Assembly (NCBI GenBank): GCA_045637205.1
Contig: JAZTYY010000011.1
Location: forward strand, 1-50,566
Source: Eubacteriales bacterium
GTDB lineage: Bacteria; Bacillota; Clostridia; Oscillospirales; CAG-272
Length of the DNA: 50,566 nt
Reading direction: 5' to 3'
The notes below the pieces were generated by a model. The model was given only the letters and a program-made list of their open reading frames with translations. It did not search any database and was not told the origin of the DNA. Position numbers and translations under genes: made by a program. Of this stretch, positions 11,520-42,300 are shown piece by piece (positions within the stretch are counted from its first letter, which is position 1; every line of letters starts with the position of its first letter).

Positions 11520-11541
11520 TTGATATTTGGAGGAAAAAAAC

Positions 11542-11949: not shown

Positions 11950-11976
11950 TTTTATTCGGTTTAAAAACCGCTGCTT

Positions 11977-12042: not shown

Positions 12043-12122
12043 GGCGACCACTCAAATTTGTTTTACAAAATTTTTATCATAAAGGGGCAGAGCATTAATT
12101 CTTGCCCAAGGAGGACAATAAA

Positions 12123-13259: not shown

Positions 13260-13271
13260 GGTTGAACTAAC

Positions 13272-14057
13272 ATGAAAATTATAGTATGTATTAAACAGGT
13301 TCCTAACACAACCGAAATTAAAATTGACCCCGTAACAAATACACTTAAGCGTGACGGTGTTCCCAGTATCATCAACCCTGATGATAAGACAGCTATTGAG
13401 GCTGCGCTTCAGCTTAAGGAAAAGTGCGGTGCAACAGTAACAGTTATCACAATGGGTCCTATGCAGGCAGAAAAAGCACTTCGCGAAGCACTTGCTATGG
13501 GTGCTGACGAAGCATTCCTTATTTCAGGCCGCGAATTTGCAGGCTCAGATACACTTGCAACATCTACAATTATCGCAGCGGCTATCAGAAAGCTCGGTGC
13601 GGACGTAGTATTCTGCGGACGTCAGGCTATTGACGGTGACACAGCACAGGTTGGTCCTCAGATTGCTGAACATCTTGATATTCCTCAAATTACATACGCA
13701 GCAGCGGTTGACTATTGCGAAGAATGTGGTGCACTCATCGTTAAGCGTGAATTTGAAGATAGATACCAGACACTTAAGGTTAGTGGTATGTGCCTTGTAA
13801 CAATTCTTTCTTCTTTTGCAAAGCCCAGATATATGAACGTTTGGGATATCGTAGGACAGGACGAAAAGGAAATCGGACTTATCACATTTGCTGACCTTGA
13901 CCTCAACAAAGAGGACATCGGTCTTGGTGGCTCACCTACAAAGGTTAAATCTACAGCAACAAAACAGTTTAATAAGACAATTGAAACTCTTGAGCTTGAT
14001 CCCGAAGCAGCAGCTAAGGCTATCGTTGACGCGCTCAAGGAACGTCATTTGATTTAA
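13272..14057 (+). CDS. etfB: Electron transfer flavoprotein beta subunit
   Basis: MKIIVCIKQVP, GRQAIDGDTAQVGP, GSPTKV. Confidence 0.95.
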   Translation: MKIIVCIKQVPNTTEIKIDPVTNTLKRDGVPSIINPDDKTAIEAALQLKEKCGATVTVITMGPMQAEKALREALAMGADEAFLISGREFAGSDTLATSTIIAAAIRKLGADVVFCGRQAIDGDTAQVGPQIAEHLDIPQITYAAAVDYCEECGALIVKREFEDRYQTLKVSGMCLVTILSSFAKPRYMNVWDIVGQDEKEIGLITFADLDLNKEDIGLGGSPTKVKSTATKQFNKTIETLELDPEAAAKAIVDALKERHLI

Positions 14058-14071
14058 GGAGGTATAGGATT

Positions 14072-15037
14072 ATGGCAAAGAATATTTGGGTATTCTGCGA
14101 ACAACGTGACGGTGAAGTTCAAAACGTTGCACTTGAGCTTATCGGTGTTGCTCGTGAGCTTGCAGAAAAGACAGGCGAAAAGGTAAATGCTATCCTTCTT
14201 GGACACGGCGTTACAGATAAGGCACAGAGCCTCATTGCTCACGGTGCTGACGGTGTTTACGTTGTAGACGACGTAAATCTTGAAAAATTCGTAACTGAGC
14301 CTTACGCTCAGGCGGTAACACATATTGCTAAAAAGTATGAGCCAAATGTAATTCTCTTTGGTGCTACAAGCATAGGTCGTGACCTTGCTCCCAGACTTTC
14401 AGCAAGACTTAAGACAGGTCTTACTGCCGACTGTACAAAGCTTGAAATGGATGAAGAGGGAAACCTTTTCATGACAAGACCTGCATTTGGTGGCAACTTG
14501 TTTGCAACAATTATTTGCCCTGATCATCGTCCTCAGATGAGTACAGTTCGTCCCGGTGTTATGAAGAAGCTTGATGCTGACGAAACAAGACAGGGTGAAA
14601 TCGTTGTTGAAAATATCGAATGGAACACAGCTAAATTTGCTGTTGAAGTGCTTGAAGAAGTAAAGGCTGAAAAGGCTGAAGCTAATATCGAGGATGCAAA
14701 GATTCTTGTATCTTGCGGACGTGGTGTTAAGAACTTGGCTTCTGCTCACGAGCTTGCAGGTAAGATTAAGGGTACAGTTTCTTCTTCAAGAACTCTTGTT
14801 GACTTGGGACTTATGGATCATGCTCGTCAGGTTGGTCAGACAGGTAAGACAGTTCGTCCTGAAGCATATCTTGCATTTGGTATTTCCGGAGCTATTCAGC
14901 ACCTTGCCGGTATGGAAGAATCCGAATTCATAGTTGCAGTTAATACTGACAAGAATGCACCTATCTTTAAAGTTGCTAACCTTGGTATCGTAGCAGACGC
15001 TGAGGCAGTATTTAAGAATCTTAATAAGATGCTTTAA
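14072..15037 (+). CDS. etfA: Electron transfer flavoprotein alpha subunit
   Basis: GLTADCT, RPAFGGN, QVGQTGKTVRP, GISGAIQHLAGM. Confidence 0.95.
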   Translation: MAKNIWVFCEQRDGEVQNVALELIGVARELAEKTGEKVNAILLGHGVTDKAQSLIAHGADGVYVVDDVNLEKFVTEPYAQAVTHIAKKYEPNVILFGATSIGRDLAPRLSARLKTGLTADCTKLEMDEEGNLFMTRPAFGGNLFATIICPDHRPQMSTVRPGVMKKLDADETRQGEIVVENIEWNTAKFAVEVLEEVKAEKAEANIEDAKILVSCGRGVKNLASAHELAGKIKGTVSSSRTLVDLGLMDHARQVGQTGKTVRPEAYLAFGISGAIQHLAGMEESEFIVAVNTDKNAPIFKVANLGIVADAEAVFKNLNKML

Positions 15038-28141: not shown

Positions 28142-29677
28142 TTAAATAACTAAGAATCTATGTTTAACAATTTCCTCGTTTTCGGGGATGGAATTTTTTA
28201 ATTTGATGGCTTTTTGGGGTGTTCCATATTCCTTTGCGACACTCCAAATTGTTGCATTTTTATCGGGGTAGCAAAGCACAATTTCACTGTTTGATTTATT
28301 TAAAAATTCACTAAAAATCATCTCATCCAAAAGGTCAATTTTATCCTCGCAAACCAAATTTACGTTGAAATTTAATTCGGAGTCAACGTATAATTTTTCA
28401 CCGTCGTGACGCGCCTTTACTGATGAAATTTCACCGTTGGCAAACCACTTAATTGGCTTTTCAAAATCGATTTTTGCCCTGTTTTCAAGCTCATATTTTA
28501 CAGGAGAATTGAGTGAAAGTGAGGCATATTCACCATCCAAAAAATAGATTAATTGATACTCGTTATTCCCCTTAAAAATGCATTTTCCTCCCTCAGTTTC
28601 AAGCTCGAAAATATTGCAATTTCCAACTATATCAATGATTTTTGAATCTTGAGAAAGCTTAATATTTTCAAGGGAAAACACGTCGTTTTGAGTGAGATTT
28701 CCGTGTGCTGATCGCACGGCATTTAACACCGTAATTTCAGTAGTAGAGCACTCACAAAGCTTTTCGGTTGAGTATGCATCTGCTATATATTTTACAGCTT
28801 CATTTTTTTGAGCCTGAGCACAAAGTGAGAGGGTTAGTTCAAGCCCGATTGCATTATCATTAAAATCGAATTTTTCGTCATAGCAAATTCCATTTACAAA
28901 GCATTCAAAAAGGGAGTTAACACCCACGCATGAAAGCTCGCATGAGAAAGGAATTTTTCTTGTTATAATTTGAGGATGTGTGCTTTCGGTATCATTGCAA
29001 TAAAGAATTTTTGTCACCGCGTCACCGCGAACTTGTATTTTATCAATGCTTGGTACACACTCAATAACAGCAACATTTGAAGAGCAATCAATTATTCGAA
29101 TACTGTCATTTGAAGAGTCAAAGGTAACAGTGTCATTCAAAACTAAGGTTTTGTTTTCACTTCGTTTTGTGTTGATGGTGTTTTTTTCAAAAATGCGATT
29201 TTCTATAGTTGCCTTGCTGTGAGCGCCGACAAGATTTGGAGCATAGAGTGATGGTGAAAACGCCGCAATTTTGCAATTTAACTTTGCGCGAACGTTGAGC
29301 TTTCTCGGGCCTAAAACCCTTGTGTTAACACTTTCAGTTTTTATTGAGGGGAGCAGGGTGATATCGTCGTTATTGACGCTGTGAGAATTAAAATTTAATG
29401 AGGATGAGCAGCTGTATTTGTCTGAAAGAAGGGTGCAATAAAGTCCACCATCAGAGCCAAGATAGGTGATTTTATAGTTTATTTCACCACTTATTTCCGC
29501 ATTGCCGTTTGATATGTATTCATGCTGTGGTAAAACGATTGCACGGCTTGAGAGTAGTCTGCGAATTTCGGGTTGGTAATCGGGAAGGGAAAAATCCGAG
29601 TTAAGCTCCACTACTGATGCCTTGTCGCAAATAGGCATTTGTGGAAAATATCCAATGTTGTTTTGTGAGATTTCCAT
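28142..29677 (-). CDS. SPOCS/DUF3794-repeat plus LysM spore coat assembly protein (SipL-like)
   Basis: LPDYQPEIRRLL N-terminal motif, three repeated beta domains, C-terminal LysM-like TIWSVAKEY...N. Confidence 0.75.
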   Translation of the reverse strand: MEISQNNIGYFPQMPICDKASVVELNSDFSLPDYQPEIRRLLSSRAIVLPQHEYISNGNAEISGEINYKITYLGSDGGLYCTLLSDKYSCSSSLNFNSHSVNNDDITLLPSIKTESVNTRVLGPRKLNVRAKLNCKIAAFSPSLYAPNLVGAHSKATIENRIFEKNTINTKRSENKTLVLNDTVTFDSSNDSIRIIDCSSNVAVIECVPSIDKIQVRGDAVTKILYCNDTESTHPQIITRKIPFSCELSCVGVNSLFECFVNGICYDEKFDFNDNAIGLELTLSLCAQAQKNEAVKYIADAYSTEKLCECSTTEITVLNAVRSAHGNLTQNDVFSLENIKLSQDSKIIDIVGNCNIFELETEGGKCIFKGNNEYQLIYFLDGEYASLSLNSPVKYELENRAKIDFEKPIKWFANGEISSVKARHDGEKLYVDSELNFNVNLVCEDKIDLLDEMIFSEFLNKSNSEIVLCYPDKNATIWSVAKEYGTPQKAIKLKNSIPENEEIVKHRFLVI

Positions 29678-29703
29678 GTATTTTACTCCTTTGTTTTTTT
29701 ACA

Positions 29704-29732
29704 AATATATGCGAAAAATACCGACAATATGA
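29704..29732 (-). promoter_or_regulatory. sigmaE-type mother-cell promoter
   Basis: Minus strand TCATATT-14-CATATATT just upstream of the coat gene. Confidence 0.6.
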
Positions 29733-29846
29733 AGATATTTTGTATCCAATAATTTCCATATTCCACATATATGGAATTTATTGCCAATATTTTGGTATAA
29801 ATGTTAGGTTTTTAACAACCAAAGGGACGAAATTTTGCAAAAACCC

Positions 29847-29875
29847 TTGCAAAAAAAGGGTATATGTGATATTAT
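29847..29875 (+). promoter_or_regulatory. sigmaA-type promoter of the acyl-lipid operon
   Basis: TTGCAA-17-TATTAT with extended TG. Confidence 0.6.
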
Positions 29876-29932
29876 ATTTAATAATATAGTATTGTGACAA
29901 ATTTTTGCAATTTTCGACAGAAGGGAGATTGT

Positions 29933-31861
29933 ATGAAGCTAAACAACGTTCACGGCTTTAAAACGATTGAAGAATACATCGACTATAAGCTGAATGAATA
30001 TTCAAAAGACAAAAAAGATTTTGAAACTCTATTTAAATATATGTTTGACGAAACGGAGAACGTGATGGTTGAAACCTCTGACGGATACCGTGTCAAGAAG
30101 GTTACTTATGGTGAGTTCAAAAAAAGAATTTTTGAAATTACACCAACTGTTTGTGATTTTCTTGCTGACGTTCCTCAAGGGGAAATGGTTGGACTTTATA
30201 TGTCCAATTCTCCGGAGTGGATTCAAATCTTTTGGGCAATTCTTGCGTCAGGCTATTCACCACTCTTGATGAATACAAGACTTTCGGACGAAGTGCTTGA
30301 GGGGGTAATTAAAGATTACTCAATCAAATGCGTTATTTCGGATAGCAAGCGCTTCTCGGTAAAAACCGTTATGAAAGAGGAAGCAATCATACCATCCGAA
30401 AAGGAATACGTTGTGCGTCCATTTGGCAAAGAGGTAATCTTTATGTCATCGGGCACAACCAATAATGTTAAGCTCTGTGCTTATAATGGTGAGAACTTCT
30501 ATTATCAGGTTTGTGACAGCGTTCAAATTGTTAAGCAGTGCCCCAAAATTGCAGCTCATTATGAAGGTGAGTTAAAGCACTTGATGCTTTTGCCACTTTG
30601 CCACGTGTTTGCTTTTATGGCCGTGTACCTTTGGTTTGGATTTTTTGCAAGAACCTTTGTGTTCCCACGTGATTTGAATCCTGAGACTATTCAAAAAACG
30701 GTTAAGAAGCACAAAGTTACACATATTTTTGCAGTTCCTATGGTTTGGGAGGCAGTGCATAAAGCAACTGTGAGAAAAATCAAAGAGAAGGGCGAAAAAA
30801 CATATAATAACTTTTGCCGCGTTAGTGACAGGGTTAACAAAATGGGTTCACTTGGTGACGTGCTTGCTAAAAAAGCATTGTCCGAGGTTAGAGAGGGCTT
30901 GTTTGGTGAGAGCATTTGCTTCTTCATCACGGGTGGCAGCCATATCAAGACTGAAACCTTGAAATTCTTTAACGGAATCGGTTACCACTTGGTTAACGGC
31001 TTCGGCATGACCGAAATTGGTATCACCTCGGTCGAAAAAACAAATAAGAGAAAAATTGCAAACAAGGCTTCCATTGGTGCGCCGTTTGGATATACTGAAT
31101 ATTCAATTGACGCTGAGGGAAGATTGCTTGTAAGAGGAAAAACAAGAGCGTGTCGCATAATGCAAAACGGTGAAGCAATCGTTACAAATTATGACGAATG
31201 GTTCAATACCGGTGACATTATGAGATGCGAGGACGGAAGATATTACTTTGACGGCAGATCAGATGATCTTATCGTTGCTGAAGACGGTGAAAATCTTAAC
31301 CCCATCATTGCTGAAAGAGAGCTTCAGGTGGCTGGTGCCGATAGAGTTTGTATCGTTCGTTCTAACGAGGGAGTTACGGTTATTGCATCCGTGCCCGGCG
31401 TTTTCTCAAACGATAAATTGAAATTCATCTATGAGGAGTTGGATGGAAAAATTGTTGCCGCTAAGCTTAGTGGAACAATCAAAAAGGTCGTGTTCACTCA
31501 CGAATCCTTGTTGCCACCGGGTGAATTTAAATTAAGTCGTCGCAAAATTGCGAATAGACTTTCAAACGGAGATATTCGAATTTTTGACCCAAGACGTATT
31601 GAAGAGCACGTGGCGGAAATTTCAAGCGGAATTGAAGCCGAAATTGCTGAGTGCTTTGCAATAGCACTTGATAAGGATTCTTCAAGCATTGCGCTTGAAA
31701 GTGATTTCTTCCGTGATTTAGAGGGTACGAGTCTTGATTACTTCACACTTTTGGGATTAATCAAATCTCGTTTTGGAATTGATGTAATTGCAAATGACGG
31801 TGCAAGGATTGCAACTGTTAAGGCATTTGCGGAATACATAAAAAGCCAGTTGACAAAATAA
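29933..31861 (+). CDS. Adenylate-forming (fatty acyl ligase-like) enzyme fused to a C-terminal carrier domain
   Basis: SSGTT, GFGMTE, FNTGD, GRSDD; C-terminal DFFRDLEGTSLDYF phosphopantetheine site; start ATG 29933. Confidence 0.85.
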   Translation: MKLNNVHGFKTIEEYIDYKLNEYSKDKKDFETLFKYMFDETENVMVETSDGYRVKKVTYGEFKKRIFEITPTVCDFLADVPQGEMVGLYMSNSPEWIQIFWAILASGYSPLLMNTRLSDEVLEGVIKDYSIKCVISDSKRFSVKTVMKEEAIIPSEKEYVVRPFGKEVIFMSSGTTNNVKLCAYNGENFYYQVCDSVQIVKQCPKIAAHYEGELKHLMLLPLCHVFAFMAVYLWFGFFARTFVFPRDLNPETIQKTVKKHKVTHIFAVPMVWEAVHKATVRKIKEKGEKTYNNFCRVSDRVNKMGSLGDVLAKKALSEVREGLFGESICFFITGGSHIKTETLKFFNGIGYHLVNGFGMTEIGITSVEKTNKRKIANKASIGAPFGYTEYSIDAEGRLLVRGKTRACRIMQNGEAIVTNYDEWFNTGDIMRCEDGRYYFDGRSDDLIVAEDGENLNPIIAERELQVAGADRVCIVRSNEGVTVIASVPGVFSNDKLKFIYEELDGKIVAAKLSGTIKKVVFTHESLLPPGEFKLSRRKIANRLSNGDIRIFDPRRIEEHVAEISSGIEAEIAECFAIALDKDSSSIALESDFFRDLEGTSLDYFTLLGLIKSRFGIDVIANDGARIATVKAFAEYIKSQLTK

Positions 31862-31890
31862 ATCAACGGCTGAACAAAAGAGAGGATATT

Positions 31891-33798
31891 ATGGTTAAAT
31901 CTTTAGACAAAAAATGGAAAGAGTTATTGTTTGCGTTTTCTGGCTTTGGTCCCAACTTCCTTATGATTTTGATGGGCTCATATTATTCAGACGCGCTAAA
32001 CCCTGCTGCACTTGAGTCAGGTGAACAGTTCCAGGCTATTATGCCCGGAATATGCCTTATAACTCCTGCACTTTTCCCAATTCTTTTCGCGCTTGGCAAG
32101 ATATTTGACGGTATTATTGACATTCCCTTTGCGCACATTACTGATACACTTTCAACAAAATGGGGACGTCGTCGTCCTGCAATCGCAGTTTGCACAGTTC
32201 CCATGATTATAAGCTACCTTTTGTGTTGGATTCCAATTGCAGGAATTCCCGTTGAAGGAGCTGCAGGTGATCAAGCCAGATTGATTAATACAATTTGGGT
32301 TAGTATTTTCAGCATAATTTTCTTTGCAACCTACACAATGTGTCTTATCGCATACTACGGTTCATTCTCAAGCGCTTGTTCTGATGAGCCCCAAAGACTT
32401 CGTGTTTCAGGTTACAAATCATTCTTTGACACAATTACATATTGTGTAGTATATGCACTTGTTCCCGTAATTCTTAGTGGTGCAAAAATTCAAATTAATA
32501 CACTTGTATTCATTTGCTTGCCTATAATGCTTACAATGATTATTCCGCTCTTCCTTATCAAAGAGGGTGAAAAATACGGTTACCCTGAAAATGAGGGTAT
32601 GAGCTCTGAAAAGATAAGCATGAAGGAAAGTATTCGTCTTACATTCCAAAACAAGATTTTCAGACGTTGGCTCTACGTTAACTGCTGTACATTCTTTGGA
32701 TTGCAGATGTTCTTGTCATCAATGAATGGCTTGATTATCGGTGGTATGGGTCTTGATGGCTTGCAAATGGCAATTCTTAATACTTGTGCATTCGGCCCCG
32801 TACCCGTTATGCTTTATTTCTTCAATAAGGCAAAGGCGCGTTATGGTGTTCGCAAGACTTACCAAAGCTGCTTGATTATGTTTGCAGTTGCTATTATGTC
32901 ATTCTTCTTGGGTTCAAGATTCGTTCTTGGTGAAGGAAACGTAATGGCTAAGATGATAATTGGTATTATTGGCGGTGTTTGCGGAAGCTGGTCAATCGGA
33001 GTATTCTTTATGATGCCATATCTTGCACCTGCACAAATTTCAAGTGTTGAAGAAAAGCTTACAGGTAGAAATCACTCAGCAATGTACTTTGCAGGTAATG
33101 CACTTGCAACATCAATCGTTGGTGCAATTTCAGGTAACCTTGTTTACGAATATATCAAAAACGTATTCTTCTCAAAGGAGCATGGCTTTGTTTGGGCTAC
33201 ATCCTCTACAGAAGCATATGAGCTTTTGTACGGTGCTTCTGCTACTGATGAGGCAGTTGCTACATCAATATTCAATTTTGGAAACCTTTTGGTTCCTTTC
33301 ATTGTTTCAATCACTTGTCTTTTGGGTGTTGCTCTTGCGTTTAAGCTTCCCAAGGATTTCACACCATCCATTTTGGCTGAGGAATATAAGAAGCTTGATC
33401 CCAACGTTGACGTAAGCGTTCTTGAAAAAGAAGAACCCCCCAAGGATCGCACCGAAGTTATCTTCGTTCAAGTTGGACTTTCAGTGCTTTCAGGCTTTAT
33501 TTTTGCATTTATTTGGACAGGAATGCTCATCAAAGCACTCAAGGAATTTAAATCAAAATTCAAGACATTTGTACCATTCTTACTTTCATGCTTCGTTCCA
33601 TTTGCTGCTATTTACTTCAACTTGAAGTTTAGACAAATCATTATTGATGAGGCAGAGAAGTGTGGAGCAAATGTTAAAATTAATAAGATCGTATTGATTA
33701 TTACATCCATCGTGTTCCCAATTCTTCCTTTGAACCTTGTTTCTTTGGCATTGTTGCAGAACGGAATTAATAAGCTTTACATTGCCAAGGATAACTAA
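31891..33798 (+). CDS. MFS transporter, glycoside-pentoside-hexuronide (MelB/MFSD2-like) type, with extra C-terminal membrane domain
   Basis: KIFDGIIDIPFAHITD...KWGRRRP GPH signature; 635 aa with about three additional TMs. Confidence 0.8.
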   Translation: MVKSLDKKWKELLFAFSGFGPNFLMILMGSYYSDALNPAALESGEQFQAIMPGICLITPALFPILFALGKIFDGIIDIPFAHITDTLSTKWGRRRPAIAVCTVPMIISYLLCWIPIAGIPVEGAAGDQARLINTIWVSIFSIIFFATYTMCLIAYYGSFSSACSDEPQRLRVSGYKSFFDTITYCVVYALVPVILSGAKIQINTLVFICLPIMLTMIIPLFLIKEGEKYGYPENEGMSSEKISMKESIRLTFQNKIFRRWLYVNCCTFFGLQMFLSSMNGLIIGGMGLDGLQMAILNTCAFGPVPVMLYFFNKAKARYGVRKTYQSCLIMFAVAIMSFFLGSRFVLGEGNVMAKMIIGIIGGVCGSWSIGVFFMMPYLAPAQISSVEEKLTGRNHSAMYFAGNALATSIVGAISGNLVYEYIKNVFFSKEHGFVWATSSTEAYELLYGASATDEAVATSIFNFGNLLVPFIVSITCLLGVALAFKLPKDFTPSILAEEYKKLDPNVDVSVLEKEEPPKDRTEVIFVQVGLSVLSGFIFAFIWTGMLIKALKEFKSKFKTFVPFLLSCFVPFAAIYFNLKFRQIIIDEAEKCGANVKINKIVLIITSIVFPILPLNLVSLALLQNGINKLYIAKDN

Positions 33799-33800
33799 TT

Positions 33801-34439
33801 ATGTTAGCGTTTTTAGGAAACTGGTTCGTTAAAATTACGGGATATCCCTTTCATCTTCTTCTTTTTCGAACCAAGGTATATTATGAAGATAAATCAGTTC
33901 AAGATAGACGCATAAAGGGCAAGGCAATAGTTGTTTGTAATCACAATAACTTGTTTGATGTGGCAATTTTGCTTTTCGTGTTTTGGAGACGCACCTTGCG
34001 TTGTGCCGTTGCTGAATTGATGTATAATAAGAACGTGTTTATGACATTCGTTCTTAAGATGCTTGGCTCGGTTAAGGTTGATAGAGATAGTCATGATTTC
34101 TCATTCTTGACAAAGCTCAAGAAGATACTTGATAAGGGTGGGGTTGTTGAAATTTATCCCGAATCACGTTTACCGCAGCCCGGGGATGTGCTCCCGTTAG
34201 AATTTAAGCCAAGTTACGTATATTTGGCACTTGAAAGCGGTGCACCAATCATTCCCATTTACAGTAATGCAAAGATTTTTTCTAAAGAGAGAGAAAGAGT
34301 CATCATCGGCAAGCCAATTTACGTTGACGATTTGTATGATTCAAATCTTTCAGAAAAGGAAAACATAAACAAAATAAATACATACGTTAGGAGTAAGGTA
34401 ATTGAACTTGGCAAAGAACTCGAAAAACAGCAAGGCTAA
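33801..34439 (+). CDS. PlsC-family lysophospholipid acyltransferase
   Basis: NHNNLFD (HxxxxD), VDR, IYPESR, FKP. Confidence 0.85.
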   Translation: MLAFLGNWFVKITGYPFHLLLFRTKVYYEDKSVQDRRIKGKAIVVCNHNNLFDVAILLFVFWRRTLRCAVAELMYNKNVFMTFVLKMLGSVKVDRDSHDFSFLTKLKKILDKGGVVEIYPESRLPQPGDVLPLEFKPSYVYLALESGAPIIPIYSNAKIFSKERERVIIGKPIYVDDLYDSNLSEKENINKINTYVRSKVIELGKELEKQQG

Positions 34440-35085
34440 AAAAGGCTTGTTTTACAACTTCTGGTATGATTTTGTTAAGGTAACGGGATGTATTCCTGCA
34501 CTCCTTTGGTGGAGACCTAAGGTTTACCGTCCCTACGGAACAAAAACTCCAAAGGGAAGGGTGCTTGTATCCGCTAACCACAGAAGCTTTTTTGATCCAA
34601 TAATTCTTCTTATTACGTTTCCGTTCAGAAGATTACATTCCCTTGCTACAAAGGATCTATATAAAACAAAATTTATGGCTGCATTTCTAACTCAAATGCA
34701 TTGTATCATGGTTGATAAGCAGAACTTCACTCTTTCTGCATTCCATGACGTTGTAACAAGACTTCAAGAGGAGAAAATGGTTGTTATTTTCCCTGAGGGT
34801 GGTCTTAATGAGGACTCAGAGGATACTATCAAAACCTTCAAGTCAGGCGCAGTGCTTATGGCACATAAGGCAAACGCGCCACTTCTTCCCGTTTATATTG
34901 TTAAGCGCAAAAAATGGTACCATAGACAAAGAGTTGTTATTGGTGAGGTTTTTGACGTAAGAAAAGAGCTTGGCGATAGACCTTCAATTGAACAATTGAA
35001 TAATGCAAGTGACACTTTGAGAAAAATGGAGCTTGACCTTCAAGAATATTTTGATTCGCTCCCAATTAGTAAAAAAGTAAAATAA
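34402..35085 (+). CDS. Second PlsC-family acyltransferase (start uncertain)
   Basis: NHRSFFD, IFPEGG, FKSGAVLMA. Confidence 0.85.
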   Translation: MNLAKNSKNSKAKKGLFYNFWYDFVKVTGCIPALLWWRPKVYRPYGTKTPKGRVLVSANHRSFFDPIILLITFPFRRLHSLATKDLYKTKFMAAFLTQMHCIMVDKQNFTLSAFHDVVTRLQEEKMVVIFPEGGLNEDSEDTIKTFKSGAVLMAHKANAPLLPVYIVKRKKWYHRQRVVIGEVFDVRKELGDRPSIEQLNNASDTLRKMELDLQEYFDSLPISKKVK

Positions 35086-35113
35086 TTAATTTTTCAAAGG
35101 AGAATTGAAAATT

Positions 35114-36625
35114 ATGAATAGAAGATTTGAAAAGTATACAGATGCTGAAACATTTTCAAAAATTGTTGATTACGCTAACGTAACAGAAATGTGGAGTCAC
35201 AGCGTAGCTACTTACCCCAACAACATTGCTATCGTTGATGGTGCTGAGTACACATACACAGCACTTGATTCATCAGTTGCAGGATTTAGAACAATCTACC
35301 GTAACAACGGTGCAACTCCCGGCTCTTTGATTGCCATTCTTTGCCCCAACTCCGTTGGTTTTGTTAAGGCATTTTTGGCAGCATCAACATATGGACTTCC
35401 CGCAGTGCTTTTGCCTGCACACCTCGATTCTAACACAGTTTTCGGAATCGCGTATAAATTTGGACTTAAGGCAATTGTTTATGATGAATCCCTTGCTGAA
35501 AAGGTATCCGTAGTTAAAGAAAGACTTCCTCAGGTTGCTTTGATTAGCTCCGCTGAAGAATGTGAAGAAAAGACACCCGCTATTCCCGTTCCCACAGAAG
35601 CTCCTTGTGTATTCATCTTTACAGGTGGTACAACAGGTAAGAGCAAGGGCGCTCGCCTTAGTCAGAGAGCTGTAATGGCAGGTACAAAGAACGGTTGCTA
35701 TGGTATCAAGAAGATTTTCGAAGAAAGATATTTGCTTGTTCTTCCTCTTACACACGTATTCGGTCTTATCCGTAACCTTATGACATGTCTTTACACAGGT
35801 AGTGCAATGTACATTTGCCGTAACAATAAGGATATGTTCCGTGATATTGCAATGTTCAAGCCCACAATACTTGTTTTGGTTCCTGCACTTGCTGAAATGG
35901 CACTTAACCTTTCACGTCAGTTCGGCAGAAACATGCTTGGTGAGGATATGAAAACAATCATTTGCGGTGCTGCTCCTGTTCCTCCTTATCTTGTAAAGGA
36001 ATATGATAAGCTCGGCATTGCGCTTCTTCCCGGCTACGGACTTACAGAATCAGCAAACCTTGTTTCAGGTAACCCCGAAGCACTTGCAAAGCCCGGCTCT
36101 GTTGGTCTTATTTACGGTGGCATGGATTACAAGATTGTTGACGGTGAGCTTTGGCTCAAGGGCATTAATATGATGGATGGCTATGCTACTCCCGAAGATA
36201 ACGCAACAGCTTATGAGGACGGATATTTCAAGACAGGCGACCTTGTAAGAATTGACGAAGAGGGCTACCTTTATATCACAGGTAGAATTAAAGAAATCAT
36301 CGTTCTTTCCAACGGTGAAAACGTTTCTCCTGCAGAGCTTGAGGTTAAATTTTATGACCTTGACGTTGTTCAGGATTGCTTGGTTTACGACGTCAACGAA
36401 AATGGTAAGGAAATGCTTGTTCTTGAGGTTCTTCCCAGAATGAGCTCAGTAAAGGCACTTGGTATTGAAGATCTTCACGCATACCTTAAGGAAGAGGTTG
36501 CAAAGATTAACGAAACATTGCCTTCATTTGAAAGAATAAATAAAATTGTCATCAGAGATACGGACTTTGTTCGTACACCTGCGATGAAGATTGCGAGAAA
36601 TTTAAATGGTAATGTCAAGAACTGA
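35114..36625 (+). CDS. Long-chain acyl-CoA/acyl-ACP synthetase (AMP-binding)
   Basis: FTGGTTGKSKG, GYGLTE, FKTGD, GRIKEII...NGENVSP. Confidence 0.88.
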   Translation: MNRRFEKYTDAETFSKIVDYANVTEMWSHSVATYPNNIAIVDGAEYTYTALDSSVAGFRTIYRNNGATPGSLIAILCPNSVGFVKAFLAASTYGLPAVLLPAHLDSNTVFGIAYKFGLKAIVYDESLAEKVSVVKERLPQVALISSAEECEEKTPAIPVPTEAPCVFIFTGGTTGKSKGARLSQRAVMAGTKNGCYGIKKIFEERYLLVLPLTHVFGLIRNLMTCLYTGSAMYICRNNKDMFRDIAMFKPTILVLVPALAEMALNLSRQFGRNMLGEDMKTIICGAAPVPPYLVKEYDKLGIALLPGYGLTESANLVSGNPEALAKPGSVGLIYGGMDYKIVDGELWLKGINMMDGYATPEDNATAYEDGYFKTGDLVRIDEEGYLYITGRIKEIIVLSNGENVSPAELEVKFYDLDVVQDCLVYDVNENGKEMLVLEVLPRMSSVKALGIEDLHAYLKEEVAKINETLPSFERINKIVIRDTDFVRTPAMKIARNLNGNVKN

Positions 36626-36863
36626 AATTAAGGAAAAATTAAAGGATGTCATGAATATGGCAGCGCCTGCGGGCGATGTTGACCTTGAAAACATTGATGA
36701 AAGCTCAAAGTTGGTCGATGACCTTGGTCTTACATCCGTAGGAATACTTTACATAGTAATTGCGATTGAGGAGTTTTTTGATATAAGATTTGACGATGTA
36801 GGTTTTGCTGATTTCAAAACATTTGGAGACGTTATTGATTATATTGAAAGAAAAGTACAGTAA
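36606..36863 (+). CDS. Acyl carrier protein (start 36606 or 36612)
   Basis: Small and acidic; DLGLTSVG...IEEFFDI...TFGDVIDYI. Confidence 0.88.
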   Translation: MVMSRTEIKEKLKDVMNMAAPAGDVDLENIDESSKLVDDLGLTSVGILYIVIAIEEFFDIRFDDVGFADFKTFGDVIDYIERKVQ

Positions 36864-37873
36864 TGAAATGGTCATATATAGAGCCGTCATATGGTGACAT
36901 GATTCGCGTATCGGCGGGGACTATCTATCATTTTGGAATTTATGTTTCAGATGACGAAGTAATTCAATTCGGGTTACCCCCCTCTCGAAGAGGGGGACAG
37001 CCCGACTCTGAAATAGAGGTCATGAGCGCAACCATTGATGATTTTCTTGCAGGCGGATTTCTTGAAGTGTGTGTCTTTGATAAAAAAGAGAAGAAAAATA
37101 ATCGCACTCCCGATGAAATAGTTAAATATGCAAGAAGTAAGATCGGTACACGCGGATATCATATCCTCTATAATAACTGCGAGCATTTTGCAAACGAATG
37201 CGTAACGGGTGTCCACATTTGCCGTCAGGCTGAGGATGTACGTGAGCTTTTTAAAAAAATGCCCGTTGTACACGTCTATATAGCTTCATTGCCTCAAGAT
37301 GAGCCCATTGGCAAACTTGAATGCAGGGAGAGAATGGACGAAATAGCTTCAATCTCAAATGAGAAGGTTAAAAGAGAAAAATACTTTGTGTGGAAGCTCT
37401 TGTGCTATGCCTTGGAGCGTAGCTTTGGAAAGAGAGGCAATAAGCTTTCTTTCAAGAAGGAGTCAAATGGCGCTTGGTCAGTAAATGACGTTGAAATATC
37501 AATTTCACACAGTGGAAATGCTTTGGCAGTTGCGGTTTCACGCGGAGCCGTAGGCATTGATATTGAACGCGTTCACACACCAAGGGCTGAAAGAATGGCT
37601 GAATTTGTTATGAGTGAAGCCGAGCTTGAAGAGTTTTCTCTTATACCCGATGAGAAAAAAGAGGAACGCCTTATCGAGATATGGACACTTAAGGAGGCAA
37701 TCTTTAAGTCCCAAAAGCTTGATAGATTTATTCCTAGGGAGCACGATATAGCAAGTGCAACCTATAAAACGAATAGCGTTATTATTGACGGTGAAAAATA
37801 TGTTTGGTCGGTAGCGACAAAAACCCCCGAAATTGTTCGCGTTTTTACCGATATCGACTTAACAAAAAAATAA
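36863..37873 (+). CDS. LRAT/PLAAT-like (permuted NlpC/P60) domain fused to an Sfp-type 4'-phosphopantetheinyl transferase
   Basis: N-terminal GDMI...YHFGIYV...NNCEHFANEC; C-terminal ISISHSG, VGIDIE, WTLKEAIFK. Confidence 0.82.
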   Translation: MKWSYIEPSYGDMIRVSAGTIYHFGIYVSDDEVIQFGLPPSRRGGQPDSEIEVMSATIDDFLAGGFLEVCVFDKKEKKNNRTPDEIVKYARSKIGTRGYHILYNNCEHFANECVTGVHICRQAEDVRELFKKMPVVHVYIASLPQDEPIGKLECRERMDEIASISNEKVKREKYFVWKLLCYALERSFGKRGNKLSFKKESNGAWSVNDVEISISHSGNALAVAVSRGAVGIDIERVHTPRAERMAEFVMSEAELEEFSLIPDEKKEERLIEIWTLKEAIFKSQKLDRFIPREHDIASATYKTNSVIIDGEKYVWSVATKTPEIVRVFTDIDLTKK

Positions 37874-38989
37874 ATGAAAAAGGGGTTCTTTATGAACCAA
37901 GAAAATTTTAATCAAAAAAACTTTAAGCCTTCTGCAAAAGCGAAGCGAGTGGCATTTATTATTGCGGGCACACTTGTTGGAATAAGCGTTGCTTCAGTTA
38001 TAACCACTGTATGCATGTACGATTCGTTTTTTGTAAGGTATGAACGTCCCAATTATGATCTCACTCCGGGACTTTACTGCTATGAGAGAATTCAAGACGA
38101 TTTGAAAAGGGAAGAGATAAAAATTCCGTCGGGAGATAATAAGCTTCAGGGCTATTATTATCCAGCCGAAAATGCCCGTGGACTTGCGGTTTTAGCGCAT
38201 GGCTTCCATGCAGGCGCTGATGATTATCTTCCATTGATCGAGGCCATTGTTAACAGAGGATATTCTGTTTTGACATATGACGTAACAGGAACATACTCCT
38301 CAGGCGGTGATGACGGAATCGGAATGTGTCAACCGTTGGTTGATATTGACAACGTTTTGAATTTTGCCAATAGGGAAGAGCCATTCAAAAATATGCCCAA
38401 GGTAGTTATTGGACATAGCTTGGGTGGATATGCGGCATCATCCGTGCTTGCACTCCATCCCGAAATCAAGGCTGCAGCTCTTATTGCGCCAATGAATAAT
38501 GCCGCAACGATTATGCTTGAAAAGGCTGAGCAATACGTTGGCGAGGTTGCAAACACAGCAAAGCCGATTTTTGATGCTTATCAAGAGATTCTATTTGGTA
38601 ATTACGTTAATTATAACGGTGTAATTGGAATTAACTCAACCGATGCCCCTGTACTCATTGCACAGGGCGTTGACGATACCGATATTACACCTGAAGGGCA
38701 GTCTATAACTGCTTTTATGAGTCAAATTACTAATCCAAACGTTCAAGTTTATTGGAAGGGTGGGCTTCAAGGCACTCACACAGGCATTTGGCACTCTGTT
38801 GAAGCTGAAGCATATAAGCGCTCTATAGAAAATCGAATCAAGGAAATGGAAAAGGAACTTGATAGAAAGCTTACTGACAGTGAGCTTGCTTGCATATATG
38901 ATTCAATTGACCATAGACTTTACAGTGACGTAAATATTGAATTGGTTGATTTGATGATTCAAACCTTTGATAAGGGTATTGCAAAATAA
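37874..38989 (+). CDS. Membrane-anchored alpha/beta hydrolase (lipase/esterase; start may be 37892)
   Basis: N-terminal TM segment, AHGF, GHSLGG, later Asp and His (GTH) triad candidates. Confidence 0.82.
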   Translation: MKKGFFMNQENFNQKNFKPSAKAKRVAFIIAGTLVGISVASVITTVCMYDSFFVRYERPNYDLTPGLYCYERIQDDLKREEIKIPSGDNKLQGYYYPAENARGLAVLAHGFHAGADDYLPLIEAIVNRGYSVLTYDVTGTYSSGGDDGIGMCQPLVDIDNVLNFANREEPFKNMPKVVIGHSLGGYAASSVLALHPEIKAAALIAPMNNAATIMLEKAEQYVGEVANTAKPIFDAYQEILFGNYVNYNGVIGINSTDAPVLIAQGVDDTDITPEGQSITAFMSQITNPNVQVYWKGGLQGTHTGIWHSVEAEAYKRSIENRIKEMEKELDRKLTDSELACIYDSIDHRLYSDVNIELVDLMIQTFDKGIAK

Positions 38990-39009
38990 AATGATAACGG
39001 AGGTATGCC

Positions 39010-39477
39010 ATGTATTGCAACAAATGTGGAAAACAAATTGAATCGGGCATTGTTTGTCCCGAATGCGCTATTGCTGAGTATGAAGAAACACATTTTGGTA
39101 AAAAAAGCACTGAGGAGCTTAATCCCACGTATGACGCTTCAACTGCATATTACGTTGAGCCACATAATAGAATGTATGGCTTTAAATTGGCACTTGCAGG
39201 TCAAATTTTAGCGGTTGTTGGTATTTTTGTGAGTTATTTTGCTATAATTGCAAATTTAATTAGCTCTGGAACAGGCTTTGTATTTGCACTTGTTTCAGTT
39301 GTATTTGTTGTTTTGCCCATGATTATGGGTATATATTCAATACAAACCTTTAAAGAGAGAAAGCACCTGCGTAAGAAACCGATAGCAACGTTGGTTCTTG
39401 GTATATCAACGCTCACAACACTTCCAATCTCTGCAATTTATACTTTAATTGCATTTGTATTAGTCGGTGCATTATAA
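39010..39477 (+). CDS. Zinc-ribbon plus 3-TM membrane protein, array copy 1
   Basis: CNKC...CPEC, NRMYGF, KPIATLVLGI; GGAGGT RBS. Confidence 0.85.
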   Translation: MYCNKCGKQIESGIVCPECAIAEYEETHFGKKSTEELNPTYDASTAYYVEPHNRMYGFKLALAGQILAVVGIFVSYFAIIANLISSGTGFVFALVSVVFVVLPMIMGIYSIQTFKERKHLRKKPIATLVLGISTLTTLPISAIYTLIAFVLVGAL

Positions 39478-39500
39478 AAACACATTAAGGAGGATTTACT

Positions 39501-40037
39501 ATGTATTTTTGCAACAAATGTGGAAAACAAATCGAATCGGGTATTATTTGTCCCGAATGTGCTATTGCTGAATATGAAAAGGCACAATTAAATAAGATAT
39601 CAAACGTGCCCATGCCCGAAGCTCCCGTGTGTGAGCCTCAAGCTCCTGTATGTGAGCCTCAAACACCTGTGTATGAGCCCGTAGTAACTCATGTACCTCA
39701 GCCTGAAATTCCTGCTCCCGTGCAGCATAGTGATCTTCGTGATCCCAACAATAAAAAGTTTGGCTTCACAAGAGCATTATTGTCAACAATTTTTGGTGGA
39801 GTGGCATTTATTATTTCGTTTATTTCTCCCTTTATTGAAGATGCAATTGGCTTTATATTAATTCTCCCATTGTTGGTAATTTCAATAATCTTTGGTATAA
39901 AATCTATTGTAGTTTTCAAGAAGAGAAAGAACCTTCCCGCAAAGCCTATTGCCACATTGATTCTTGGCATAGTTGGTCTTGCAATTTCAGGAACCTTGAT
40001 TCTTGAATTTTTATCTGAATTTCTTTACTTATTTTAA
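39501..40037 (+). CDS. Zinc-ribbon plus 3-TM membrane protein, array copy 2
   Basis: CNKC...CPEC, Pro-rich linker, NKKFGF, KPIATLILGI. Confidence 0.85.
   Translation: MYFCNKCGKQIESGIICPECAIAEYEKAQLNKISNVPMPEAPVCEPQAPVCEPQTPVYEPVVTHVPQPEIPAPVQHSDLRDPNNKKFGFTRALLSTIFGGVAFIISFISPFIEDAIGFILILPLLVISIIFGIKSIVVFKKRKNLPAKPIATLILGIVGLAISGTLILEFLSEFLYLF
39621..39680 (+). repeat. 21-bp coding tandem repeat (about 3 copies)
   Basis: APVCEPQ-APVCEPQ-TPVYEP. Confidence 0.8.
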
Positions 40038-40100
40038 TATTGTATTTTAAAATTATATTTACAAATTGTTTTTAATTGTGGTATAATATAGGAGAGTTCT

Positions 40101-40583
40101 ATGTACTGTAGTAATTGTGGTAAACCGATTGAATCGGGAACAAAATGTTATGATTGCTTAAAGGCCACATATCAACCTGCACAAAAGAAATATATTCGTC
40201 CAAAATATAATTTTGAACCTGACCCCGATAATGCAATGTATGGCTTTTTTAAGGCATTGGTTTCTACCATTTTGGCGGTTATGGCAGGAGTTTGGACATA
40301 CATTGTTGCTGATCATATCAGCAGTTCAACGGTTGAGCAATACGGAAAAGTGTACGTTATGTTAGATCCCAATTCAACTTTCATTTCTTTATTAGTTCCG
40401 ATACCGTTTATAATTGTTTCTATTATCTTTGGTATAATTTCAATCAGAACGTTTGCAAGAAGAAGAGTAACATGTGAAAAGCCCATTGTTACGTTGGTGC
40501 TTGGCATTGTTGGTATTTGCATTTCCGCCTTGTCGTTGTGCTTTGTGATTCCCGTAATAAACCAAGTTGTTCAATTTGTTTAA
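40101..40583 (+). CDS. Zinc-ribbon plus 3-TM membrane protein, array copy 3
   Basis: CSNC...CYDC, NAMYGF, KPIVTLVLGI; possible own promoter TTTACA-18-TATAAT at 40058-40087. Confidence 0.85.
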   Translation: MYCSNCGKPIESGTKCYDCLKATYQPAQKKYIRPKYNFEPDPDNAMYGFFKALVSTILAVMAGVWTYIVADHISSSTVEQYGKVYVMLDPNSTFISLLVPIPFIIVSIIFGIISIRTFARRRVTCEKPIVTLVLGIVGICISALSLCFVIPVINQVVQFV

Positions 40584-40609
40584 AAATAAACACAGTTAAA
40601 AATATCATT

Positions 40610-41358
40610 AAAAGGAGACATATTATGTATTGCAACAAATGTGGAAAGTACATTTCTCAAGGAACAAAATGTGACGACTGTGCAAGAGCTGAATACTATG
40701 CTTCTCAAGCACAGCAGGCTCAGCAGTCCTCATATAATTATGCTAATGGCAACCCCTACGCTCGTCCTAATTATAACTGTGAGCCCGAGCCTAAAAATAG
40801 AATGTATGGCTTCGGTAAGGCTCTTACTTCAACCATTTTAGGATTTGTTGGTTACATTTGGACATATGTTTCATTTGTTTTGTCAGTTGATTTGTATTAT
40901 GGAATTGAAGAATCAGCAATTGTGCTTTCACTTATGGCGCTTCCATTTATAATCATTCCTATCATATTTGGTATTTCATCTATCAAAGTATTTATGAGAA
41001 GAAAAGCTACTTGTGCCAAACCAATACCTACCTTGATTCTTGGTATTGCAGGTCTTTCACTTGGTGGTATAGCTGCTTTGTTCGAAATGCTTTTGTTTTT
41101 TGCTATGACAACCATGTAAAAAATAAAAAGGAGACATATTATGTATTGCAACAAATGTGGAAAGTACATTTCCCAAGGAACAAAATGTGACGACTGTGCA
41201 AGAGCTGAATACTATGCTTCTCAGACGCAGCAGGCTCAGCAGCCCTCATATAATTATGCTAATGGCAACCCCTACGCTCGTCCCAATTACAACTGTGAGC
41301 CCGAACCTAAAAACAGAATGTATGGCTTTGGTAAAGCTCTAACATCAACAATTTTAGG
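40610..41358 (+). repeat. ~230-bp near-identical direct repeat (40610-40842 and 41126-41358)
   Basis: RBS, zinc ribbon and linker of copies 4 and 5 are almost identical (offset 516 bp), then diverge. Confidence 0.9.
40625..41119 (+). CDS. Zinc-ribbon plus 3-TM membrane protein, array copy 4
   Basis: Start moved to ATG 40625 behind AAGGAG; CNKC...CDDC, NRMYGFGKAL, KPIPTLILGI. Confidence 0.85.
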   Translation: MYCNKCGKYISQGTKCDDCARAEYYASQAQQAQQSSYNYANGNPYARPNYNCEPEPKNRMYGFGKALTSTILGFVGYIWTYVSFVLSVDLYYGIEESAIVLSLMALPFIIIPIIFGISSIKVFMRRKATCAKPIPTLILGIAGLSLGGIAALFEMLLFFAMTTM

Positions 41359-41638
41359 CTTTATTGGATTTATCTGGTCCTATATAGCATTTGGTGAAGC
41401 CACAAACTATTGGGGAGATGAAGAATTGGCACTCGTGCTCATCTTGATGGGACTTCCTTTAATCATCATTCCTTTGATTTTCGGAATTCAGTCAATCAAG
41501 GTATTTACAAGAAGAAAGAATTTATCTGCAAAGCCTATTGCAACTCTGATTCTTGGAATTTCTGGTCTTGTAATGTCAGGATTTGGTGCTTTGATTTCTC
41601 TCAGTTCGATGATGTCAATTTTTCCTTATCTTTATTAA
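41141..41638 (+). CDS. Zinc-ribbon plus 3-TM membrane protein, array copy 5
   Basis: N-terminal half nearly identical to copy 4; different TM/loop region. Confidence 0.85.
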   Translation: MYCNKCGKYISQGTKCDDCARAEYYASQTQQAQQPSYNYANGNPYARPNYNCEPEPKNRMYGFGKALTSTILGFIGFIWSYIAFGEATNYWGDEELALVLILMGLPLIIIPLIFGIQSIKVFTRRKNLSAKPIATLILGISGLVMSGFGALISLSSMMSIFPYLY

Positions 41639-41742
41639 GATAGGGAGCAAGACCTGACGGTTTTGCAAATTTAATAAGATAATAAGCCCTTTGAGTAAGG
41701 ACTATATTATAAAAAATAATATGAAAAAAAGGAGAATTTGTT

Positions 41743-42300
41743 ATGTTCTGTAGAAAATGCGGAAAACAAATCGCAGAGGGAACAATGTGTGATGATTGCG
41801 CAAGAGCTGAATTCTATGCACAGCAGCCCCAGCAGCCCCCTCAGCAACCCAACTATTCACAACCCAACTATTCACAGCCTTATGCTCAGCCCAATTACGC
41901 TCAGCCCCAGGCACAGCCCAAGCCTCAGTATACACGTGAGCCCGATCCTCAAAATAAGATGTACGGCTTCGGCAAGGCATTGACAGGTACAATCTTGGCA
42001 TTTGTCAGCATTATTATTCCTTATCTTTCATTGGGAGTCATGTTTGATTCACCTGAACTTGGTATCGTTTTAATGCTTATGGCACTTCCTTGTGCAATTA
42101 TCGGTCTTGTCTTCGGTATTGGCTCTATTAAGACATTTATGAGAAGAAAGAACGGCTGCGCTAAGCCTATTGCTACATTGATTCTCGGTATTGCGGCTCT
42201 TTCATTGGCAGCATGCATACTTCTTGGCTATGTTATTGGTATTTTCATGGGATTAGGTCTCTTGGGAAGCGGTTTTGAAGATATTTTATATTATCTTTAA
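41743..42300 (+). CDS. Zinc-ribbon plus 3-TM membrane protein, array copy 6
   Basis: CRKC...CDDC, QPNYS-type Q/P repeats, NKMYGFGKAL, KPIATLILGI. Confidence 0.85.
   Translation: MFCRKCGKQIAEGTMCDDCARAEFYAQQPQQPPQQPNYSQPNYSQPYAQPNYAQPQAQPKPQYTREPDPQNKMYGFGKALTGTILAFVSIIIPYLSLGVMFDSPELGIVLMLMALPCAIIGLVFGIGSIKTFMRRKNGCAKPIATLILGIAALSLAACILLGYVIGIFMGLGLLGSGFEDILYYL

Follow-up and report, generated by a model that had tools for sequence, protein, structure and literature searches.

The 50,566-nucleotide contig JAZTYY010000011.1 (assembly GCA_045637205.1, from a Eubacteriales bacterium of the CAG-272 group; this whole stretch is called the window) encodes a protein in which a domain of the LRAT/PLAAT acyltransferase type is fused to a phosphopantetheinyl transferase (PPTase). 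The fusion is one bifunctional, soluble protein with the expected architecture, fold and intact catalytic residues in both halves, and its gene is real and widely conserved among uncultured gut Clostridia. The PPTase half very probably primes the acyl carriers encoded beside it. As regards the LRAT half, sequence and gene context give about an even chance that it is an enzyme working through an acyl thioester on Cys106, with a carrier-bound acyl thioester as one of its substrates. Both halves come from well-known families, and no description of their combination was found in the open-access literature.

Architecture and fold of the fusion protein

The fusion is read from a single open frame on the plus strand (36863..37873) of 336 amino acids (aa). 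As the first-pass annotation of this DNA had claimed, this one frame carries both sets of motifs, namely Y-H23-F-G-I-Y, V-I-Q35-F-G and N-C106-E-H-F in the LRAT half and S-H216-S, G-I-D233-I-E235 and W-T-L-K-E278-A in the PPTase half. The two-domain architecture proposed there is borne out by Pfam, in which LRAT (PF04970) matches residues 8-118 at 73.4 bits against a cut-off of 24.3 (E 2.4e-20, profile positions 3-119 of 120) and ACPS (PF01648) matches residues 229-288 at 46.4 bits against 25 (E 4.5e-12). A protein atlas look-up with residues 1-130 returned LRAT-family clusters only. The AlphaFold2 model, built from an alignment of 90 fusions, has a mean pLDDT of 91.6 and a pTM of 0.65, and its lowest 10-residue pLDDT block (66, residues 121-130) lies in the linker; given this pTM and the low linker pLDDT, the relative orientation of the two domains is not fixed. 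No fusion of larger size was found at E <= 1e-10 among proteins of 589-2000 aa, which is weak evidence.

The N-terminal part is modelled as the permuted NlpC/P60 fold of PLAAT type that its annotation as an LRAT domain implied. Foldseek comparison with the PDB gives AdPLA/PLAAT3 (4fa0, TMt 0.79, 27% identity; 7zom, 0.77; 4dot, 0.78; probability 1.00) and further matches to PLAAT4, HRASLS2 and H-REV107, the identity to PLAAT3/AdPLA ranging from 27 to 28%. At the sequence level, phmmer with residues 1-131 against solved structures finds human PLAAT3/AdPLA (4dot, E 1.2e-7). The PLAAT3 alignment pairs H23 of the query with H23, Q35 with H35 and C106 with C113, and the earlier remark that the usual second His appears here as Gln (VIQF) is correct. 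The triad of HRASLS3 is Cys113-His23-His35, the third position being occupied by a polar residue that orients the first His (PMC4624172), and the triad of LRAT is given as C-H-H (PMC10318531). A Gln at the third position of the fusion is therefore plausible.

The fusion has no membrane anchor (its maximum 19-residue Kyte-Doolittle mean is 1.34), and no signal peptide-like or hydrophobic segment giving access to the cell wall was seen in it. Among 110 free-standing LRAT homologues, described below, the median of the same maximum is 0.89. HRASLS1-4, in contrast, carry a C-terminal hydrophobic membrane anchor (PMC4624172). Because the fusion lacks such an anchor, unlike PLAAT and LRAT, a phospholipid donor is not certain, and the anchor-free LRAT half fits a soluble partner such as an acylated acyl carrier protein (acyl-ACP).

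With PLAAT3/HRASLS3/AdPLA and the LRAT family, the N-terminal half has in common the permuted NlpC/P60 fold, NCEHF with its nucleophilic Cys and the first His at position 23, and by analogy a PLAAT3-like chemistry through a Cys acyl thioester would be expected (PMC4624172). It differs from PLAAT3 in the Gln that replaces His, in the absence of a C-terminal transmembrane anchor, in its bacterial host and in occurring either in fusion with a PPTase or downstream of an ACP gene. Arg15 and Glu68 are invariant in the clade to which it belongs, and Arg15 faces a Glu in the PLAAT3 alignment. Among the marks of the LRAT family, the hidden Markov model match, the fold, the Cys and the first His are all found, whereas the second His and the membrane anchor are missing, and the N-terminal half is best called a divergent bacterial branch of the family. 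We know of no bacterial LRAT-family protein with an assigned function.

The C-terminal part matches Sfp in Foldseek (1qr0, E 5.7e-13; 4mrt, TMt 0.66) over 222-224 columns with TMt values of 0.62-0.66, and other group II PPTases too, with 249 columns aligned to human AASDHPPT. AcpS chains match it weakly (E ~1e-2) over ~115 columns. It is of the two-lobed monomer size class (~200-230 residues) and not a 120-aa AcpS-type unit. With residues 131-336, phmmer recovers Sfp at E 9e-4 with ISHSG, GIDIE and WxxKE..K paired. The Mg2+/CoA residues of Sfp (H90, D107, E109, E151 and K155) correspond by counting along the alignment to H216, D233, E235, E278 and K282. With Bacillus subtilis Sfp (1qr0, 4mrt), this half thus has in common a two-lobed fold of ~200 residues, the ISHSG/GIDIE/WxxKE motifs and a gene beside likely carrier substrates; it differs in carrying the LRAT domain at its N-terminus, in an identity of only ~17% and in appearing to be the sole PPTase of most carrier genomes, where no AcpS was found. 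The NCBIfam equivalogs AcpT, AusB, HetI and EntD all score below cut-off for the PPTase half, which therefore lies outside any named PPTase subfamily.

Conservation of the fusion gene

A search of a collection of 5.8 billion proteins gave 816 matches at E <= 1e-3. Both Pfam domains are present in all 120 of these that were listed (322-341 aa, 51-100% identical), and the listed matches come from several sources and many contigs. In a scan of one genome per prokaryote species, 159 stretches encode relatives, of which 80 loci were kept as the synteny sample; all are from metagenome-assembled genomes (MAGs) of uncultured gut or rumen Clostridia, the record names among the carriers including Oscillospiraceae, Acutalibacteraceae, Christensenellaceae, Faecousia and Scatosoma. 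This recurrence across many assemblies and sources means that the fusion is no artefact of a single assembly.

Conservation was counted in the alignment of 90 fusions, which are 38-84% identical. In the LRAT half, H23, C106 and H108 are present in all 90 and Q35 in 89, with one Ala. In the PPTase half, H216, D233, K277, E278 and K282 are each present in 90/90 and E235 in 83, the remaining seven having Gln. The median identity to the query is 67% in the LRAT half as against 43% in the PPTase half, and columns conserved at 90% or more number 41 of 128 and 30 of 202, respectively. By these measures the LRAT half is the more constrained half of the fusion. One MAG (L023, L034) contains two pairs of ACP and LRAT-PPTase genes on different contigs, with 56% and 53% identity to the query.

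Operon context and free-standing LRAT genes

The fusion is the seventh of eight tightly packed genes on the plus strand (Table 1). They encode, in order, an adenylate-forming acyl ligase with a carrier domain (A-PCP), a transporter (MFS), two PlsC-type acyltransferases (AT1 and AT2), a second ligase (LIG), an ACP, the fusion and an alpha/beta hydrolase (ABH). The adjacent ACP of the first-pass annotation is indeed present, its gene (36606..36863) lying directly upstream so that its TAA stop and the ATG of the fusion have one base in common. The attachment residue Ser44 of this ACP is invariant in 57/57 aligned homologues. The LIG gene overlaps the ACP gene by 20 nt, and ABH, whose maximum 19-residue hydropathy is 2.26 at residue 26, begins one base past the stop of the fusion. 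Within 29600-39600, predicted promoter and terminator sites were no more numerous than in shuffled sequences, so the boundaries of the operon rest on gene spacing and synteny.

The NCBIfam models nearest to A-PCP are acyl/aryl-CoA ligases, all below their cut-offs. Also below cut-off are the partial matches of AT1 to AGPAT and to the acyltransferase region of Aas, the best matches of LIG (long-chain fatty-acid ligase models) and the ACP models matched by ACP. The transporter gives weak matches to GPH/MelB models of NCBIfam and no match in a PDB sequence search. Its identification as an LplT-like or MFSD2A-like protein was rejected, the score being MFS_2/GPH-like with no support from an LplT model or a PDB sequence.

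Neighbour frequencies were obtained by tblastn of the window proteins against the 80 loci, the denominators being loci with enough flanking sequence. ACP stands immediately upstream of the fusion in 73/79 loci. The most constant neighbour is AT2, upstream in 70 of the 72 loci with at least 2.5 kb of upstream sequence, and LIG is upstream in 64/75. Where at least 7.3 kb of upstream sequence is available (61 loci), A-PCP is found in 51 and a syntenic MFS gene in 52; ABH follows in 30 of the 64 loci with at least 2.2 kb downstream. Within the same 61 loci the full order A-PCP/MFS/AT1/AT2/LIG/ACP occurs in 41, AT2/LIG/ACP only in nine, A-PCP/MFS/AT1/AT2/ACP without LIG in five, A-PCP/MFS/AT1/AT2 without LIG and ACP in five, and the order without A-PCP in one. 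A single adenylase, a single carrier, AT2 and the LRAT-PPTase make up the constant core of the operon.

The LRAT domain also occurs as a protein of its own. A sample of 201 genomes of the window's order contains the full fusion in four genomes, the window's own among them, and nine further genomes have short open reading frames (ORFs) of 135-153 aa that match only residues 1 to ~130, at 39-51% identity. The stand-alone proteins (134-153 aa) are encoded in the order AT1-AT2-ACP-LRAT in all eight loci examined, the LRAT start overlapping the ACP stop in both loci read in detail, and in the three loci that were extended A-PCP is upstream each time, with no second ligase. A large protein collection holds 172 short LRAT homologues at E <= 1e-8, some of them on contigs of more than 100 kb and with up to 66% identity to the LRAT domain of the query. 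Of the 112 with a length of 125-160 aa, 110 keep NCEHF; the two that depart from it (P0154 and P0192) are one protein with NCEQF and one chimera with a C-terminal HNH-type motif (precomputed Pfam PF01844).

With 68% identity to the best free form, the LRAT domain of the query is nearer to it than to 46 of the 89 fused forms. In a quick maximum-likelihood tree of 200 domains, which rests on a short alignment of 135 columns, fused and free forms interleave; by parsimony count the state changes at least 14 times, compared with a mean of 65.6 after shuffling. That fusion or fission happened several times is likely, though not proven. Because the domain also stands free directly after ACP in the same operon, we read the LRAT enzyme as belonging to the carrier/acyltransferase pathway in its own right and not as an accessory of the PPTase.

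Two of the related loci depart from these arrangements. In one (L011/L098, G027:C5), AT1 and AT2 are fused to a 418-aa two-domain acyltransferase upstream of ACP and a free LRAT gene. In a relative positive for type II fatty-acid synthesis (FASII; L101, G010:C11:50000-66000, ~8168-15021), the operon is interrupted between LIG and ACP. The insert, judging from translations, presumably encodes a radical-SAM activase-like protein (275 aa) and a pyruvate-formate-lyase-like enzyme (728 aa), and we take the ORFs downstream, on the same grounds, to be alpha-oxoamine synthase-like (395 aa) and short-chain dehydrogenase-like. The free LRAT-like ORF of this locus has His at the third triad position (VVHF), but NCEDF in place of NCEHF.

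Fatty-acid synthesis and PPTase content of carrier genomes

The phyletic counts given here come from a first survey of MAGs by candidate-based searches; genomes that are related do not count as independent, and the 50 other carrier genomes come without completeness figures. The genome of the window (1.59 Mb, 99.97% complete by marker genes) has one PF01648 match, which is the fusion gene, and searches of it gave no match to the AcpS model, to the FASII ketosynthase (PF00109) or to PlsX, PlsY and DegV/FakB. Of its three PP-binding matches, two belong to the operon and the third is an orphan ACP of 73 aa. AMP-binding matches number five, three of them outside the operon, with three FadD-like ligases of ~580 aa, and of six PF01553 genes four are outside the operon; three of the six encode proteins of 412-468 aa. 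The orphan ACP (L002, G000:C3:28584-28805) lies between what appear by sequence to be a ComEC-type-like membrane protein and a tRNA-adenosine deaminase-like ORF, and no lipid-synthesis genes are near it.

Among the 50 other carriers, 47 gave no match to the PF00109 ketosynthase and three gave weak partial matches (E >= 3e-7); in the order sample, a ketosynthase match at E <= 1e-10 is found in 99/201 genomes. Exactly one PF01648 match is present in 37 of the 50. Several carrier genomes have two or three such matches, in ORFs of ~335-355 aa. PlsY is found in 191/201 genomes of the order sample, and the window genome, without PlsX, PlsY and FakB matches, is atypical among carriers. On these counts the typical host would be auxotrophic for fatty acids and have the usual Fak/PlsX/PlsY route, and the fusion is usually its only enzyme able to make holo-ACP.

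The complete fold and catalytic residues, the adjacency to substrates and the usual status as sole PPTase together indicate that the PPTase half is very probably carrier-priming, with ACP and the carrier of A-PCP as its substrates and the orphan ACP as a further one by default. It would convert the 85-aa apo-ACP and the carrier domain of A-PCP to the holo form. The orphan ACP is probably a housekeeping ACP that also depends on this half, which presumably primes it as the only PPTase found in most carrier genomes.

Possible functions of the LRAT half

In the reading preferred here, the LRAT half would use a Cys106-His23-Gln35 triad, catalytically intact to judge by its residues, in one step of a carrier-dependent lipid-acylation pathway. 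Cys106 would take an acyl chain as a thioester and pass it on, the acyl-phosphopantetheine thioester of a carrier being one of the two substrates. Three forms would fit: a thioesterase that off-loads or edits the acyl-carrier, an enzyme that moves the carrier's acyl group to a lipid or an amine, or one that works in reverse and charges the holo-carrier from a (lyso)phospholipid ester. The grounds for a carrier thioester are the constant pairing with an ACP gene, whether the domain is fused or free, the recurrent fusion to a PPTase that binds ACP, the solubility of the protein and the precedent of BtrH. BtrH is the papain-like acyl carrier protein:aminoglycoside acyltransferase of butirosin synthesis and is a case of a Cys enzyme of the papain superfamily that takes an acyl group from an acyl-carrier thioester (PMC10318531). 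Compared by description, it differs from the LRAT half in family and topology (BtrH_N, grouped with C39/C70 and not with LRAT) and in pathway (PMC10318531).

Several observations weigh against this reading. Gln replaces the second His of the family triad, and an active triad containing it is a prediction. The orientation of the two domains is undefined, so the model is silent on any channelling between the two active sites. Ligase, carrier, acyltransferase and PPTase would make up a formally complete chemistry without the LRAT domain, so the pathway does not prescribe a step for it. In 13/50 carrier genomes PF01648 is matched two or three times, and the status of sole PPTase is not universal. 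The carriers also keep PlsY (49/50), PlsX (46/50) and DegV/FakB (48/50), so that the operon would usually add to the exogenous fatty-acid route and not replace it; replacement of PlsX/PlsY/Fak as a general rule was rejected on these same counts. Finally, we know of no characterised member of PF04970 that uses a thioester or a carrier protein as substrate.

The main rival, to which we give a real but clearly smaller chance, would make the LRAT half an ordinary phospholipase A1/2 of PLAAT-like type that does not act on the carrier at all. Membrane or imported phospholipid would be deacylated by it and the lysolipid re-acylated by the Aas-like acyltransferases, which would amount to a Lands cycle in bacteria, and being fused to the PPTase would be no more than a convenience of co-expression. 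The documented donors of the characterised LRAT/PLAAT members are all glycerophospholipids, used via a Cys thioester (PMC4624172), and the best fold and sequence matches of the LRAT half are PLAAT3/AdPLA. Furthermore, the operon contains a transporter of the MFS type and a membrane-anchored hydrolase, and so resembles the lysolipid remodelling of Escherichia coli LplT/Aas, with which it has in common an MFS transporter, PlsC-type acyltransferases and an acyl-ACP-synthetase-like ligase (PMC11416262). AT1, AT2 and LIG partially match the Aas models PRK08633, PRK06814 and PRK08043, with E values from 1e-9 to 1e-29 and 20-100 bits against cut-offs of 886-1349. In comparison with LplT/Aas, the operon has its parts split up and doubled, with two each of ligases, carriers and acyltransferases, and brings its own ACP, a PPTase and an LRAT enzyme; to our knowledge, Aas has no LRAT component. 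By sequence, the operon resembles a split LplT/Aas lysolipid re-acylation system but is no member of it. Against a phospholipase stand the lack of the hydrophobic anchor of the HRASLS1-4 kind (PMC4624172) and the tie of the LRAT domain to an ACP gene in both its fused and its free forms, interleaved on the tree, a pattern more indicative of a functional connection with the carrier than of chance. In addition, a phospholipase A at work in the cytoplasm on the cell's own membrane would need control, and none is evident here.

A second rival, rather unlikely, would reduce the LRAT half to a proofreading thioesterase only, analogous to type II thioesterases. PPTases of the Sfp type can take acyl-CoA as substrate, and the carriers that result are repaired by type II thioesterases. 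The LRAT half would in the same way clear wrongly loaded acyl or acetyl groups, including those from mis-priming by the PPTase with acyl-CoA, from the few carriers of an auxotroph. Its solubility, its place in or beside the enzyme that binds and primes carriers and the combination of few carriers with promiscuous-looking ligases (three PP-binding and five AMP-binding matches in the window genome) would suit such a role. It is harder to reconcile with the far stronger conservation of the LRAT half than of the PPTase half, unusual for an accessory editing enzyme, and with the separate alpha/beta hydrolase next door in about half of the loci (30/64); in addition, we know of no LRAT-family thioesterase.

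That the LRAT domain is an ATP-independent (lyso)phospholipid:holo-carrier transacylase, the last of the forms named above, is likewise improbable. Cys106 would remove an acyl chain from a glycerolipid, whether imported or of the membrane, and pass it to the phosphopantetheine thiol of an ACP freshly primed by the other half. This would explain the variants whose free-standing ACP has no ligase of its own, namely 5/61 fused loci and the A-PCP/AT1/AT2/ACP/LRAT operons in which the LRAT gene is free. Since the operon encodes two ATP-dependent ligases, ATP-free loading is not needed in most of its variants. The transacylation without ATP from phospholipid to holo-ACP or an amine that the first-pass annotation put forward is hypothetical for the fusion, and so is synthesis of N-acyl-PE.

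Least of all is to be expected from a non-lipid NlpC/P60-type amidase or peptidase, or from an inactive structural or regulatory module of the PPTase: the superfamily does hold many amidases and peptidases (PMC10318531) and the third triad residue departs from the His of the LRAT family, but in Pfam, in sequence and in fold it is specifically the LRAT/PLAAT branch that matches best and not the amidase branches, the Cys, His and NCEHF are invariant in 90/90 fusions, which speaks against an inactive module, the context is exclusively one of acyl-carrier and acyltransferase genes, and the protein has no hydrophobic or signal peptide-like segment for access to the cell wall.

A complex prediction for the LRAT domain (residues 1-130) with ACP gave a score of 0.18 and a mark of 0.32 and is used neither for nor against binding.

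Related pathways and significance

Another pathway of gut Clostridia with a related logic is that of OaaA/OaaACP/OaaC, which makes fatty acid amides with a condensation domain of the nonribosomal peptide synthetase type as transferase (PMC13310621). In common with the fusion operon, it has a free-standing fatty-acid adenylase and a dedicated ACP, onto which fatty acids from diet or host are loaded; no LRAT or PlsC-type enzyme is described for it in the excerpt of PMC13310621. Membership of the operon in the Oaa pathway was rejected, as no condensation domain was found in the operon genes.

Searches of open-access full text found no paper in which LRAT or PLAAT occurs together with phosphopantetheinyl, and one classification paper only that mentions PF04970; the earlier statement that no characterised protein of this architecture is known agrees with this. 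The fusion is a widespread, uncharacterised domain combination with possibly new acyl-transfer chemistry. Its operon is kept across many uncultured gut and rumen Clostridia without a convincing fatty-acid synthase ketosynthase, and for this reason it bears on how membranes are built from host and dietary lipids. Should the LRAT half work on acyl-carrier thioesters, phospholipids would no longer be the only donors in LRAT/PLAAT chemistry; should it charge ACP with acyl chains from phospholipid, it would provide a new route to acyl-ACP and a means of salvage for fatty-acid auxotrophs. With a small, soluble protein and a known ACP as likely partner, the question lends itself directly to tests in vitro.

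Features of the window

Table 1. Positions in the window of the operon genes and of the domains and catalytic codons of the fusion.
Feature	Positions	Strand	Evidence or remark
A-PCP: adenylate-forming acyl ligase with carrier domain, 655 aa, first operon gene	29894..31861	+	AMP-binding E 5.2e-35; PP-binding residues 583-649
MFS: MFS_2 (GPH-like) transporter, 635 aa	31891..33798	+	Pfam MFS_2 E 1.2e-36
AT1: PlsC-type acyltransferase, 212 aa	33801..34439	+	PF01553 E 6.8e-18
AT2: PlsC-type acyltransferase, 227 aa	34402..35085	+	PF01553 E 3.6e-21; 38-nt overlap with AT1
LIG: acyl-CoA/ACP-type ligase, 506 aa	35105..36625	+	AMP-binding E 3e-55; AMP-binding_C_3
ACP: acyl carrier protein, 85 aa	36606..36863	+	PP-binding E 8.1e-7; attachment Ser44 at 36735-36737
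Fusion, LRAT/PLAAT-type permuted NlpC/P60 domain, residues 1-128	36863..37246	+	PF04970, Foldseek, PLAAT3 alignment
Fusion, catalytic codons of LRAT half	H23 36929-36931; Q35 36965-36967; C106 37178-37180	+	
Fusion, interdomain linker helix and loop, ~residues 121-134	37223..37264	+	helix 121-132 in model
Fusion, complete two-lobed Sfp-type 4'-phosphopantetheinyl transferase, residues 135-336	37265..37873	+	PF01648, Foldseek, Sfp alignment
Fusion, codons of PPTase half	H216 37508-37510; D233 37559-37561; E235 37565-37567; E278 37694-37696; K282 37706-37708	+	
ABH: alpha/beta hydrolase, 371 aa, N-terminal membrane anchor	37874..38989	+	Hydrolase_4 E 6.4e-17

Downstream of the operon, at least six small genes that are paralogues of one another (155-200 aa) stand in tandem on the plus strand (39010-42300). 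A Pfam scan of three of them (starts 39010, 39501 and 40101) gave no convincing family. In five of the six, the N-terminus is zinc-ribbon-like and almost the same from gene to gene (M-Y-C-N-K-C-G-K-x-I-E-S-G ... C-P-E-C), with hydrophobic segments after it. The minus strand encodes a 511-aa SipL/SPOCS protein (PF12673, E 3.5e-15) at 28142-29677, immediately before the operon. SipL is a sporulation protein of Clostridia, and the host organism may be a spore former.

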